DNA of 27,497 bases from an uncultured Opitutales bacterium (GTDB lineage Bacteria > Verrucomicrobiota > Verrucomicrobiia > Opitutales > JBHJGM01): the NCBI GenBank assembly GCA_964405825.1, contig CAYOPI010000016.1, positions 1 through 27,497 of the forward strand, in the 5' to 3' direction. Below, piece after piece: positions 4,534-5,612 of this stretch (positions are counted from its first letter, which is position 1; each line of letters begins with the position of its first letter). Made by a program: the position numbers and the translations under genes. The notes beneath the pieces were generated by a model, which was not told the DNA's origin, did not search any database, and saw nothing but the letters and a program-made list of their open reading frames with translations.

Positions 4534-4610
4534 GTTGGCCATCGTCTAACGGCAAAGATACCCGACTGTGATTCGGGGGATCGTGGGTTCAATTCCCCGT
4601 GGCCAACCCA
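4534..4610 (+). tRNA. tRNA-His (anticodon GTG) with G-1 and encoded CCA; T-stem imperfect
   Basis: G-1 then acceptor TTGGCCA/TGGCCAA, discriminator C, CCA. Anticodon arm CCCGA-CTGTGAT-TCGGG. T-loop TTCAATT, but the T-stem GTGGG/CCCCG has two mismatches in the manual fold. Confidence 0.6.
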
Positions 4611-4615
4611 CCCTC

Positions 4616-4690
4616 GCCTCTGTCGTCCAACGGCCAGGACCGTGGATTGTCCATCCACGAATGTGGGTTCGACTCCCGCCAGGGGCGCCA
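4616..4690 (+). tRNA. tRNA-Asp (GTC), CCA encoded
   Basis: Acceptor GCCTCTG/CAGGGGC, D-arm GTCC..GGAC, anticodon arm GTGGA-TTGTCCA-TCCAC, T-arm GTGGG-TTCGACT-CCCGC, then GCCA. Confidence 0.85.
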
Positions 4691-4712
4691 TCTTTCAACG
4701 ATCCATTCGGCT

Positions 4713-4784
4713 ACCCCTGTCGTCTAATGGTTAGGACAGCGAGCTTTCAATTCGCAGACGCGGGTTCAATTCCCGCCTGGGGTA
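4713..4784 (+). tRNA. tRNA-Glu (TTC), no encoded CCA
   Basis: Glu-type 3-bp D-stem GTC/GAC with loop TAATGGTTAG. Anticodon arm GCGAG-CTTTCAA-TTCGC. T-arm GCGGG-TTCAATT-CCCGC. Acceptor has one T:T mismatch at 6:67. Confidence 0.7.
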
Positions 4785-4799
4785 CTCTCTTTTCTTTAT

Positions 4800-4876
4800 G
4801 GCCAAGTAGCCCAACTGGCAGAGGCGGCGGTCTCAGACACCGTTCAGTGCAGGTTCGAATCCTGCCTTGGCCACCA
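4800..4876 (+). tRNA. Type-I (short variable loop) tRNA with anticodon CAG; isotype uncertain, Gln-like body
   Basis: Acceptor GGCCAAG/CTTGGCC, A73, CCA encoded. 3-bp D-stem GCC/GGC. Anticodon arm GCGGT-CTCAGAC-ACCGT (U33, anticodon CAG, A37). 5-nt variable loop. T-arm GCAGG-TTCGAAT-CCTGC. Confidence 0.6.
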
Positions 4877-4886
4877 TTTTCAACGG

Positions 4887-4958
4887 GCCCCTTTAGTTCA
4901 ACCGGAAGAACACCCGGCCTTTAACCGGGAGGACGGGGTTCGAGTCCTCGAAGGGGCA
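4887..4958 (+). tRNA. tRNA-Lys (TTT), unusual C33 in anticodon loop, no CCA
   Basis: Perfect acceptor GCCCCTT/AAGGGGC. D-arm GTTC..GAAC. Anticodon arm CCCGG-CCTTTAA-CCGGG. T-arm CGGGG-TTCGAGT-CCTCG. Confidence 0.7.
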
Positions 4959-4972
4959 TTTCTTTTTGCGGC

Positions 4973-5047
4973 TGCGAAGTGGTGTAACCGGCAGCACCGC
5001 GGGCTTTGAACCCGTAGGAGGAAGTTCGAGCCTTCCCTTCGCAACCA
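4973..5047 (+). tRNA. tRNA-Gln (TTG), CCA encoded
   Basis: U1:A72 acceptor TGCGAAG/CTTCGCA. Anticodon arm GCGGG-CTTTGAA-CCCGT. T-arm GGAAG-TTCGAGC-CTTCC. ACCA at the 3' end. Confidence 0.85.
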
Positions 5048-5106
5048 TCCACACAGCCTCACGCAACAGCCTCCTGCGGTCTGGCTGCCGAGGCTTCTGC
5101 ACTTTT

Positions 5107-5202
5107 CTGGGGATGCGCGAGTTTGGTTGAAGCGGCCCGGCTTGGAACCGGGTACGCCTGCCCCGCTGGCAGGTGTCGGAGGTTCGAATCCTCCTCCCCA
5201 GA
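5107..5202 (+). tRNA. Long (96-nt) type-II tRNA with anticodon TGG on a Ser/Leu-like body, possibly with an 8-bp acceptor
   Basis: Acceptor CTGGGGA/TCCCCAG with a possible 8th pair T5106:A5202. Ser-like D-arm TG-CGC-GAGTTTGGTTGAA-GCG. Anticodon arm CCCGG-CTTGGAA-CCGGG. ~24-nt variable arm with a 6-9-bp hairpin (CCTGCC/GGCAGG). T-arm GGAGG-TTCGAAT-CCTCC. No CCA. Confidence 0.55.
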
Positions 5203-5218
5203 CCTTTCAACACCTTAC

Positions 5219-5289
5219 GGGAGTGTGGTGCAAAGGCAGCATGGAGCCCTACGAAGGCTCAGATGAAGGTTCGAGTCCTTCCACTCCGA
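5219..5289 (+). tRNA. tRNA-Arg (ACG) with G1:G72 mismatch
   Basis: Anticodon arm GAGCC-CTACGAA-GGCTC. T-arm GAAGG-TTCGAGT-CCTTC. D-arm GTGC..GCAT. Acceptor GGGAGTG/CACTCCG pairs at 6 of 7 positions. Confidence 0.6.
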
Positions 5290-5386
5290 CGACTTTCCTG
5301 CGCCGGTCGGCGGCAGGAGCCTCCCGCCTCGCGGTCGAGGGCTTCTGTTCCGCCCAGACATTCGCGGCGGCGCACGAAAACCCAAA

Positions 5387-5458
5387 GGCGGCGTAGCTCA
5401 GTGGTAGAGCATTCTGAGTCCGCTCAGGAGGTCGCCGGTTCGATTCCGGCCGTCGCAT
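5387..5458 (+). pseudogene. tRNA-like gene with normal acceptor, D and T arms but a collapsed anticodon arm (no 7-nt anticodon loop)
   Basis: GGCGGCG-TA-GCTCAGTGGTAGAGC...GCCGG-TTCGATT-CCGGC-CGTCGCA. The central region TTCTGAGTCCGCTCAGG folds as CTGAG/CTCAG around a 4-6-nt loop. 1:72 is G:A. Confidence 0.4.
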
Positions 5459-5459
5459 C

Positions 5460-5532
5460 CCACTGTTAGCTCAGGAGGTAGAGCACATGGTTCTGAATCA
5501 TGTGGTCCCTGGTTCGACTCCAGGACAGTATC
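5460..5532 (+). tRNA. tRNA-Gln (CTG) with a frayed acceptor end (1:72 and 2:71 unpaired)
   Basis: D-arm GCTC-AGGAGGTAGA-GCAC. Anticodon arm CATGG-TTCTGAA-TCATG. T-arm CCTGG-TTCGACT-CCAGG. Acceptor CCACTGT versus ACAGTAT pairs at only 5 positions. Starts 2 nt after the preceding tRNA-like gene. Confidence 0.5.
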
Positions 5533-5536
5533 CAAT

Positions 5537-5612
5537 GGAATAGTAGCTAAGCTGGTTATAGCGTGTCCCTGAAAAGGACAAGGAGCGGGTTCGACTCCCG
5601 CCTATCCCGCCA
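5537..5612 (+). tRNA. tRNA-Phe (GAA), CCA encoded
   Basis: Acceptor GGAATAG/CTATCCC (one A:C). D-arm GCTA-AGCTGGTTA-TAGC. Anticodon arm TGTCC-CTGAAAA-GGACA. T-arm GCGGG-TTCGACT-CCCGC. GCCA at the 3' end. Confidence 0.8.

Follow-up and report, generated by a model that had tools for sequence, protein, structure and literature searches.

Among the tRNA gene clusters described in bacteria, L-arrays are long, supernumerary arrays of up to 43 genes that spread horizontally (Santamaría-Gómez et al. 2021, PMC8421152), and "tRNA array units" are delimited by a minimum of 20 tRNA genes and a density of 2 per kb or more (Tran et al. 2016, PMC4758250). HNH endonuclease and RtcB-type neighbours recur at cyanobacterial L-arrays, the Anabaena L-array is induced by translation stress, and L-arrays have been reported as supernumerary in Verrucomicrobia and Planctomycetes (PMC8421152). 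Inside individual planctomycete genera, the number of tRNA genes varies between 46 and 77 (PMC13315336). Here, we analyse a tRNA array in a 27,497-nucleotide stretch of DNA from an uncultured Opitutales bacterium (contig CAYOPI010000016.1 of assembly GCA_964405825.1; the whole stretch is hereafter called the window). This array ends in three tRNA-like units of unusual build and is followed, after a non-coding leader, by the gene for a slipin, a protein with an SPFH domain. A link to SPFH proteins is mentioned in neither of the two L-array papers (PMC8421152, PMC4758250).

Other described systems pair tRNA-shaped RNAs with proteins or messenger RNAs. Ro60 (Rsr) is accompanied by the tRNA-like Y RNAs YrlA and YrlB and by RtcB/RtcA operons (PMC4201824, PMC7790460), and RNase P cuts only those Y RNA mimics whose acceptor has 7 bp (PMC4201824). 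Meanwhile, the known bacterial major vault protein (MVP) homologues belong to other phyla and have no tRNA link (10.1101/872010). An SPFH gene has been found inside the rtc locus of Pseudomonas aeruginosa (PMC13086221). That gene is an independent precedent for an association between SPFH and Rtc proteins. This case aside, we know of no other SPFH family tied to RNA genes. Precedents for tRNA units joined to mRNAs include the Escherichia coli tRNA-tufB operon, the mascRNA at the 3' end of MALAT1 and the tRNA punctuation of mitochondrial transcripts.

Results

Anatomy of the array

The original prediction had drawn attention to a dense cluster of tRNA and tRNA-like genes, and ARAGORN bore it out with 11 tRNA-like genes at 4535-5612, all on the plus strand, and no tRNA elsewhere in the 27.5-kb window. 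All 11 units lie above the gathering score of the Rfam family RF00005 when the region is searched alone (43-64 bits vs 29), and 10 units reach that score in a search of the whole window. As part of the explanation that we consider best, we take, with moderate confidence, the 11 cloverleaf genes to be eight genuine supernumerary tRNA genes (4534-5290) joined to three abutting tRNA mimics (5386-5612).

The units are co-oriented and not periodic, and the only repeats within the array are shared T arms. The spacers had been put at 2-22 nt, which stands for most of them, within or near that range, and not for the full series (5, 22, 14, 10, 14, 59, 14, 95, -3 and 3 nt). As had also been claimed, the CCA end is encoded in some members (His, Asp, Leu, Gln-TTG, the anticodon-less unit and Phe) and absent in the others, and odd 1:72 pairs occur in Arg (G1:G72), in the anticodon-less unit (G:A) and in the unit labelled Gln-CTG (C:U). 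Further irregularities are U6:U67 (Glu) and A3:C70 (Phe), the residues C33 (Lys) and C37 (Asp), and a bulge in the T stem of His. With 11 units in 1.08 kb, the density exceeds the 2 per kb of published array units, and the number of genes stays below their 20.

Three terminal tRNA mimics

When the terminal parts of arrays from 13 Verrucomicrobiota and Sedimentisphaerales loci were aligned, the terminal units were found to abut one another (spacers -3 to +4) after a larger spacer. In the window, these units are Y, X and Z, in that order. Unit Y has an anticodon arm consisting of a 7-bp stem with a UCCG tetraloop, it encodes CCA, and its homologues in relatives bear unrelated "anticodons". Unit X carries invariant D and T arms and a 5-bp acceptor without CCA, while its anticodon loop is different in every genome, with 11 different sequences among 12 orthologues. 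In alignment A7 (n=12), the four helices of this unit are 97-100% paired with 12 compensatory pairs, values that 0 of 500 shuffles reach, and the pairs 1:72 and 2:71 are formed in only 29% of cells. Unit X lacks the 7-bp acceptor, the CCA end and the conserved anticodon of a canonical elongator tRNA. In unit Z, the T arm is the sole part conserved everywhere.

A broader comparison points in the same direction. Across 68 loci, the last array unit displays 30 different "anticodons", including the A34 types ATG, ATC, ATT, AAT, AAC and ACA and one stop anticodon; to our knowledge, no bacterium uses those A34 anticodons. Of the 68 last units, 23 have kept both of their top two acceptor pairs, compared with 560 of 613 other array tRNAs. 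Judged from these alignments, the last three units are conserved tRNA mimics and not tRNAs. A minimal module in an Opitutales metagenome-assembled genome (MAG; locus L212) consists of the mimic trio alone, then the leader, slipin, a homologue of the next open reading frame (ORF) of the window, ORF306, and RtcB.

Linkage of array and slipin across genomes

A scan with a slipin alignment, at one genome per species, detected 576 relatives, and the best 80 loci were kept for counts; these come mostly from Planctomycetota, with a few from Desulfobacterales, Victivallales and Sedimentisphaerales. Among the loci with at least 1.5 kb of upstream DNA, ARAGORN found at least one tRNA on the slipin strand in the 1.5 kb upstream of slipin in 60 of 67 and an opposite-strand tRNA in 0 of 67, compared with a tRNA in a 3-kb downstream control interval in 2 of 65 loci. 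Nearly all array tRNAs lie on the slipin strand (680 of 690), and the gap between the last of them and the slipin start has a median of 494 nt (interquartile range 442-616). In the loci with such tRNAs, their number runs from 1 to more than 39, and they lie roughly 400-680 nt ahead of slipin. Array size has a bimodal distribution, at 0-7 vs 12-39, with the arrays of Planctomycetota reaching 27-39 or more and showing a largely conserved gene order.

In the nearest slipin loci, the same-strand tRNAs just upstream number 9 in Cerasicoccus fimbriatus, 7 in a Verrucomicrobiota MAG and 9 in Puniceicoccus vermicola, and a Puniceicoccaceae MAG has 12, or 13 in a second sample with an identical slipin protein, the difference being one tRNA-Asp. 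Flanking genes other than the module differ in every genome compared, and the mimic-leader-slipin core is near-universal in the sampled slipin loci of the PVC phyla (Planctomycetota, Verrucomicrobiota and relatives). These comparisons indicate that tRNA genes, mimics, leader and slipin follow one another in a conserved order, on a single strand, across these phyla and a few other lineages. The linkage falls outside the stretch to which the original prediction referred. We could not find the arrangement in the literature searched, in which no paper combined "tRNA array" with "SPFH".

In some loci, same-strand tRNAs are also present downstream of slipin (13 at L072, 7198-8319; L059, 4214-5304; immediately behind slipin at L012, L013, L014 and L046), so that slipin can be embedded within an array and not only placed at its end. 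Besides, two complete modules lie about 50 kb apart in one Planctomycetia genome (L019 and L021, contig CAWDRV010000004.1), with at least 29 and at least 39 tRNAs.

Slipin, ORF306 and the genes that follow

The nearest relatives of the slipin belong to the Opitutales/Puniceicoccaceae group of Verrucomicrobiota, with 65% identity to that of Cerasicoccus. Family searches gave a clear Pfam match to Band_7 and weak NCBIfam matches to HflK/C, and the Band_7/SPFH domain of the SPFH/stomatin family is thereby present. Unlike the slipins, HflK/C, QmcA and flotillins of this family, however, the protein has no N-terminal membrane anchor and no NfeD partner, NfeD being absent here; instead, the N terminus is built from five-stranded beta repeats, two or four of them among this protein and its relatives. 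Because its highest 19-residue hydropathy is 1.0, we regard it as free of transmembrane helices.

In an AlphaFold model (predicted local distance difference test score, pLDDT, 82), four beta repeats of five strands each precede an SPFH domain, and a long helix forms the C terminus; shorter relatives of 371 aa have two beta repeats. The only full-length structural match of the model is the vault protein, with template-modelling scores (TM-scores) of about 0.31-0.34; the predicted fold and domain order are vault-protein-like, a resemblance limited to fold and order. Identification of the slipin as MVP by sequence was rejected, given that PF01505 and PF11978 are absent even at E values up to 10.

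The ORF306 family has a confident predicted fold, no solved relative and no structural match, and its sequence has no match in Pfam, NCBIfam, PHROG or PDB. The possibility that it is an HNH nuclease was discarded, as no similarity was found. Downstream of slipin there is no universal partner gene: RtcB follows in 5 loci of different lineages and in L212, where the ORF306 homologue stands between slipin and RtcB, RtcA follows in 3, and an HNH-like gene in at least 7.

The eight tRNAs and two odd families

The mixed quality of the array members does not amount to decay alone: the two strangest members belong to families conserved with compensatory changes, and the last three units are conserved mimics. 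The first of these members, the CAG tRNA (4800-4876), is 77 nt long with a 5-nt variable loop. Bacterial tRNA-Leu normally has a long variable arm, and this tRNA departs from that class II body while keeping A73, CCA and a D arm of the tRNA-Leu type. Relatives of this tRNA from four further genera have the anticodons CAG, TAA or TAG, all Leu, with 95% of pairs kept and 8 compensatory pairs (alignment A6), and most "Leu" genes in planctomycete arrays are likewise short (73-79 nt). The CAG tRNA probably works as a Leu tRNA, though a structurally non-canonical one. Beyond the window, family members were located at L004 (8713-8789), L008 (8973-9049), L009 (3522-3597), L014 (7495-7571) and in many planctomycete arrays. 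Among phage sequences, the nearest matches, at 84% over about 70 nt, are to genes annotated as tRNA-Leu in phages of Corynebacterium and Mycobacterium.

The second member, the TGG tRNA (5107-5204), is 98 nt long and has a variable arm of about 22 nt with a 7-bp stem, in contrast to the class I body with a short loop of canonical tRNA-Pro. This arm is combined with C1-G72 and A73, which, together with the anticodon xGG, we take to fit proline identity. Its relatives, with TGG or CGG, were aligned with it at L004 (8960-9056, CGG) and L009 (3921-4017, TGG), and the D arm of the family is Ser/Leu/Tyr-like. Mistranslation by this class II Pro tRNA is conceivable. On the strength of these alignments, the odd Leu and Pro members are best described as conserved, selected families rather than products of decay.

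Other irregularities differ in their distribution. Position 37 in the Asp family is C in the window and U or G in orthologues, never the usual A. At 1:72, the Arg orthologues have G-C or G·U, unlike the G1:G72 of the window, and this mismatch, C33 of Lys and U6:U67 of Glu are private to this genome.

The leader and the elements flanking the array

Within the leader, conserved motifs are found at 5641-5651 (AGCCCAAGGAG) and 5742-5750 (GGATACCGG), followed by a 3' element at 5881-5952 that ends in CCGCGGGCCCACTTTCC. The consensus of this element is GCTCAAGC…CTCCGCR…CGTGTGATC…CCCGAGGG, often with a T-run next to it, and it is present in 60 of 81 loci; as a guess, it could act as a terminator or attenuator. 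The leader also contains terminator-like hairpins, has no Rfam match, and its Verrucomicrobiota profile matches most planctomycete loci over long stretches, including four loci without an ARAGORN tRNA.

Upstream of the array lies a block of about 95 nt with 74-88% DNA identity to the array-upstream region of six other genera, containing the invariant runs GGT..AACGTC…TAA..GGCGTCCAA.CC and GAGAGGGGCGAAA. The proposed fold has 94.7% of cells paired and 7 compensatory pairs, values reached by 0 of 500 shuffles, whereas slid controls give 32-47%. As n=7 and the structure was derived from the same seven sequences that were used for scoring, the fold is put forward as a candidate only, assigned to the plus strand because of its G·U pairs. 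Copies were seen in the Puniceicoccaceae-like clade (L001 7279-7436, L009 2616-2782, L002 7654-7815, L012 3568-3728, L008 8555-8697 and L004 8042-8165), and there was no Rfam match and no copy in Planctomycetota loci or in a metagenome sample. Further metagenome copies were sought and dismissed: a strict pattern gave 0 matches and a loose one 120 loci, all of them chance matches by a full-length hidden Markov model. Between this block and the array, the AT-rich stretch at 4485-4505 might be a candidate promoter region; no full sigma-70 consensus site was found in 3500-6000.

The flanking gene remnant that had been pointed out was confirmed as a C-terminal fragment with 79% DNA identity to the end of the ORF at 7681-8433, and it sits directly after the DegT stop codon. 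Since the remnant is a C-terminal fragment of an ORF306 paralogue, the degenerate direct repeat (3646-3745 left, 8322-8412 right) brackets the segment from the upstream RNA to ORF306, which hints at a duplication or insertion of the whole module.

The two long spacers of the array (5045-5110 and 5288-5390) have the common pattern AGCCTCC…G(A/G)GGCTTCTG, each forming a hairpin followed by a U-rich tract, with no counterpart found in other loci. The hairpin at 5068-5095 may be a weak terminator or a processing signal.

Accessory status and transfer

Array content differs completely between related genera, and two congeneric Cerasicoccus species with a syntenic locus, whose flanks share 72-84% DNA identity, have 9 vs 17 tRNAs. 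In many relatives, this position is occupied by the mimic or mimics alone. Although the evidence is indirect, an accessory or supernumerary array is favoured over a housekeeping one.

A GC and tetranucleotide test was judged uninformative for 1 kb of tRNA genes, and the GC content at third codon positions (GC3) of the linked protein genes was used instead. It is 0.85 in both slipin and ORF306, equal to the 0.83-0.85 of the flanking genes, and we therefore see nothing in the composition that points to recent transfer; the array's own lower GC (0.59) is usual for tRNA and non-coding DNA in GC-rich genomes. The original assignment to horizontally acquired arrays thus stands in part: the locus is of the accessory L-array kind and no ordinary housekeeping operon, as its content turns over between relatives, and GC3 gives no sign of recent horizontal acquisition. 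Array size is patchy (0-39) and the flanks are variable, yet the core is near-universal and its GC3 native. The module core looks vertically inherited within the PVC phyla rather than purely mobile.

A search of phage genomes for close DNA relatives yielded none, only single-tRNA matches of 73-85% identity. One of three slipin loci in IMG/VR has an array. This is a 94-kb contig classed as viral (L089, IMGVR_UViG_3300007072_000340) with a 36-tRNA array and slipin at 911-5560 and a phage-type HNH-AP2 homing endonuclease at 9242-9730 (phrog_99, E 7e-42); no phage structural genes were found in the 13 kb examined.

Surroundings in the window

The window is GC-rich (65%) chromosomal DNA in which no integrase or phage gene was seen. 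Upstream of the module are genes for an Nramp transporter and a DegT-type aminotransferase, and downstream, besides the SPFH protein, those for a glycyl-radical enzyme and its activase, molybdopterin genes and others. The pyruvate-formate-lyase-like glycyl-radical enzyme and its radical-SAM activase (9894-12850, with a stop/start overlap) are an ordinary, unrelated pair, and a 536-aa protein at 16875-18485 has several ankyrin repeats. The features of the module are collected in Table 1.

Table 1. Features at and around the tRNA array, in window coordinates
Feature	Position	Strand	Description and evidence
Gene remnant, C-terminal fragment of an ORF306 paralogue	3646..3745	+	Ends in RDNKTIRLHHWHLVHLNHKERTRAS and a stop; blastn 79% over 91 nt to 8322-8412; alignment, translation
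Terminator-like hairpin with T-run	3954..3989	+	First of two similar copies, repeat family D10; -16.4 kcal/mol, z -2.7
Second terminator-like hairpin	4328..4364	+	GCCCAAGC…GCTTGGGC and T6; sequence conserved upstream of arrays in related genera
Candidate structured RNA	4381..4475	+	H-type pseudoknot and two hairpins; conservation, covariation
AT-rich stretch	4485..4505	+	-10-like hexamers TATATT and GATAAT; sequence; similar AT-rich block in relatives
tRNA-His(GTG)	4534..4610	+	G-1 at 4534, CCA encoded, C73, bulged U in T stem; ARAGORN (4535-4610), Rfam
tRNA-Asp(GTC)	4616..4690	+	CCA encoded, C37; ARAGORN, Rfam
tRNA-Glu(TTC)	4713..4785	+	U6:U67 mismatch, no CCA; ARAGORN, Rfam
Class I "Leu"-CAG tRNA	4800..4876	+	Short variable loop, tRNA-Leu-type D arm, A73, CCA; ARAGORN, Rfam
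tRNA-Lys(TTT)	4887..4958	+	Perfect stems, C33, no CCA; ARAGORN, Rfam
tRNA-Gln(TTG)	4973..5047	+	U1-A72, A73, CCA encoded; ARAGORN, Rfam
Spacer hairpin	5068..5095	+	AGCCUC…GAGGCU, then U-rich tract, in the 59-nt spacer; -20.5 kcal/mol, z -1.7
Class II long "Pro"-TGG tRNA	5107..5204	+	Long variable arm, C1-G72, A73, CCA incomplete; ARAGORN, Rfam 50.1 bits
tRNA-Arg(ACG)	5219..5290	+	G1:G72 mismatch; ARAGORN, Rfam
Terminator-like hairpin	5327..5340	+	CCUCGCGGUCGAGG; in the 95-nt spacer between true tRNAs and mimic trio
Unit Y, anticodon-less mimic	5386..5462	+	ARAGORN, Rfam, comparison with relatives
Unit X, mimic	5462..5529	+	ARAGORN label Gln-CTG (5460-5533); alignment, covariation
Unit Z, mimic	5537..5612	+	ARAGORN label Phe-GAA; ARAGORN, Rfam, comparison with relatives
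Conserved non-coding leader	5613..6041	+	Motifs and 3' element conserved among loci
Slipin gene	6042..7559	+	SPFH protein, 505 aa, identical to P0001
ORF306/P0121	7681..8433	+	250 aa, large hypothetical-protein family; 3' end (8322-8412) is the right repeat copy

Discussion

With L-arrays, this locus shares a dense, co-oriented and non-periodic build, patchy and fast-changing content, functional-looking members next to defective ones, and occurrence in Verrucomicrobia and Planctomycetes. HNH and RtcB neighbours of the kind that recur at L-arrays are seen at some related loci and not in the window. It differs from them in being short, with eight true tRNAs, and in lying directly upstream of a mimic trio, a leader and an SPFH gene. 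On balance, we lean towards reading the co-oriented unit of spare tRNAs, mimics, leader and vault-like SPFH gene as a PVC-wide module for the response to tRNA damage or translation stress.

From the observed anatomy, conservation, covariation and gene linkage, we infer co-transcription, processing, induction by stress and a role of slipin as follows. The locus would be transcribed in the plus direction as one transcript or a few read-through transcripts, from which tRNA-processing enzymes would excise the tRNAs and mimic Y, with its full acceptor stem and CCA, while X and Z would remain on the slipin mRNA and give it a structured 5' cap or recognition site in the shape of a tRNA. Slipin production would thereby be coupled to the expression and processing of the spare tRNA set, and, on the analogy of the Anabaena L-array and the Rtc RNA-repair loci, the module would most likely help the cell to recover from damage to its tRNAs or from translational stress. 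As in known tRNA-mRNA co-transcripts, tRNA-shaped elements here abut a protein-coding transcript on the same strand, whereas the mimic nearest to the mRNA has no full acceptor stem. Since this mimic combines conservation across phyla with a hypervariable loop and an incomplete acceptor, a role beyond simple punctuation is suggested.

Several observations weigh against this interpretation. Co-transcription is read from strand and spacing, and transcription may be split into separate units, given the terminator-like hairpins in the array (5068-5095 and 5327-5340) and in the leader. The eight true tRNAs fall short of the published array-unit size of 20 or more genes, and the private defects of the window copies may be damage, with function possibly lost. 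With a pI of 5.2-6.4, the slipin is acidic; no feature for RNA binding can be recognised in it and, like ORF306 and the next ORF, it has no PADLOC match. Additionally, the window contains no RtcB, RtcA or HNH gene, and RNAalifold on 45 sequences of the 3' leader element gave a consensus structure with only a weak 5-bp hairpin.

A counter-measure against tRNA-targeting toxins, which we regard as a rather unlikely alternative, would assign the tRNAs the part of replacement or nuclease-resistant isodecoders, the mimics that of decoys or sensors and slipin that of an effector or scaffold, with RtcB/RtcA resealing the cleaved RNAs. The window set of His, Asp, Glu, Lys, Gln, Arg, Leu and Pro is mostly split-box, and split-box tRNAs are the classical targets of anticodon nucleases; the anticodon-loop oddities (C33 in Lys; C, U or G at position 37 in the Asp family), the RtcB/RtcA genes linked in several loci, the HNH homing endonuclease and the one IMG/VR contig with a module would also fit. 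However, C33 of Lys, seen in this genome alone, may simply reflect damage, the large planctomycete arrays span nearly all amino acids, the neighbourhood in the window is metabolic and not a defence island, and PADLOC matched neither slipin and ORF306 nor the next gene. At a comparably low level of credence, we entertain the idea that mimics Y, X and Z, the leader, the vault-like SPFH protein, the ORF306 family and RtcB/RtcA might form an unrecognised RNA-surveillance or repair machine of the PVC phyla, onto which spare tRNAs accreted repeatedly as co-expressed or co-needed genes. In such a machine, an SPFH cage would work with tRNA-shaped non-coding RNAs in the way that Ro60 does with Y RNAs or the vault with vault RNAs.

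Somewhat more doubtful is a ribonucleoprotein cage, in which slipin would assemble into a soluble SPFH or vault-like shell, with the mimics, and perhaps damaged tRNAs, bound to it or enclosed in it, comparable to vaults with their vault RNA or to Ro60 and its Y RNAs. The slipin model shares with MVP small beta repeats, an SPFH-like shoulder and a long helix in that order, both proteins are soluble, and eukaryotic vaults carry small non-coding RNAs; it differs in having four repeats instead of nine, in its low TM-scores (about 0.31-0.34) and in having no Pfam Vault or MVP_shoulder match. With the Ro60 system, the locus has in common small, non-decoding RNA mimics of the tRNA elbow (D and T arms) beside the gene of an oligomeric or ring protein, sometimes with RtcB/RtcA, and an acceptor truncated in most mimics; here, however, the partner is an SPFH protein, there is no Ro-binding helix, and the mimics are fused to an array and an mRNA leader. 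The YrlA model RF02553 reaches 22.2 bits (E 0.12) vs 69 bits, the window ORFs scanned contain no Ro60 domain, no Ro60 or TEP1 gene lies nearby, and the acidic slipin has no RNA-binding motif.

Improbable, in our estimate, is a decaying relic, that is, an eroding array acquired horizontally, with the region upstream of slipin as a permissive or preferred site of tRNA insertion. Private defects in several window copies, the fast gain and loss of units, the many loci that keep one to three units only and the degenerate direct repeat around the module would all be expected of such a relic, and 3 of 26 genes of the Anabaena array are pseudogenes (PMC8421152). Against it stand the compensatory changes with which unit X, the leader and the odd families of Leu and Pro tRNAs are conserved from genus to genus and between phyla, the anticodons of the odd families, which stay in one amino-acid box, the strand bias (680/690) and the GC3 of the linked genes, which matches the host. 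An ordinary housekeeping tRNA operon placed by chance upstream of slipin, as in E. coli tRNA-tufB, would account for the single strand, the short spacers, the native GC3 of the linked genes and the array that one relative carries amid core genes (ribosomal proteins, Pth, DnaB, FtsH, SerRS), but is very improbable in view of content that is not conserved within a genus or between samples with identical slipin, the non-canonical class I Leu, class II Pro, pyrimidine 37, C33 and 1:72 mismatches, a contig with two modules, and the many relatives with only mimics here, whose housekeeping tRNA sets must therefore lie elsewhere.

The findings bear on several questions. In annotation, the terminal "tRNAs" of an array of this type, among them those that read as A34 or stop "anticodons", should be left out of the tally of decoding tRNAs. 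The truncated-acceptor tRNA mimic, the two candidate RNA motifs and the ORF306 family are new objects of study, and the arm-less tRNA-Leu and long-armed tRNA-Pro families bear on tRNA recognition by synthetases. Accessory tRNA arrays are widespread, and the only functional study in the literature searched is that of Anabaena (PMC8421152). Across a large bacterial group, these arrays now gain a fixed genetic partner, consisting of a mimic leader and an SPFH protein that is soluble and vault-like, near which RNA-ligase and cyclase genes recur. In this sense, the question of why bacteria keep spare tRNA sets becomes testable in Cerasicoccus, Puniceicoccus vermicola, Adhaeretor mobilis, Lacipirellula limnantheis and Singulisphaera acidiphila.

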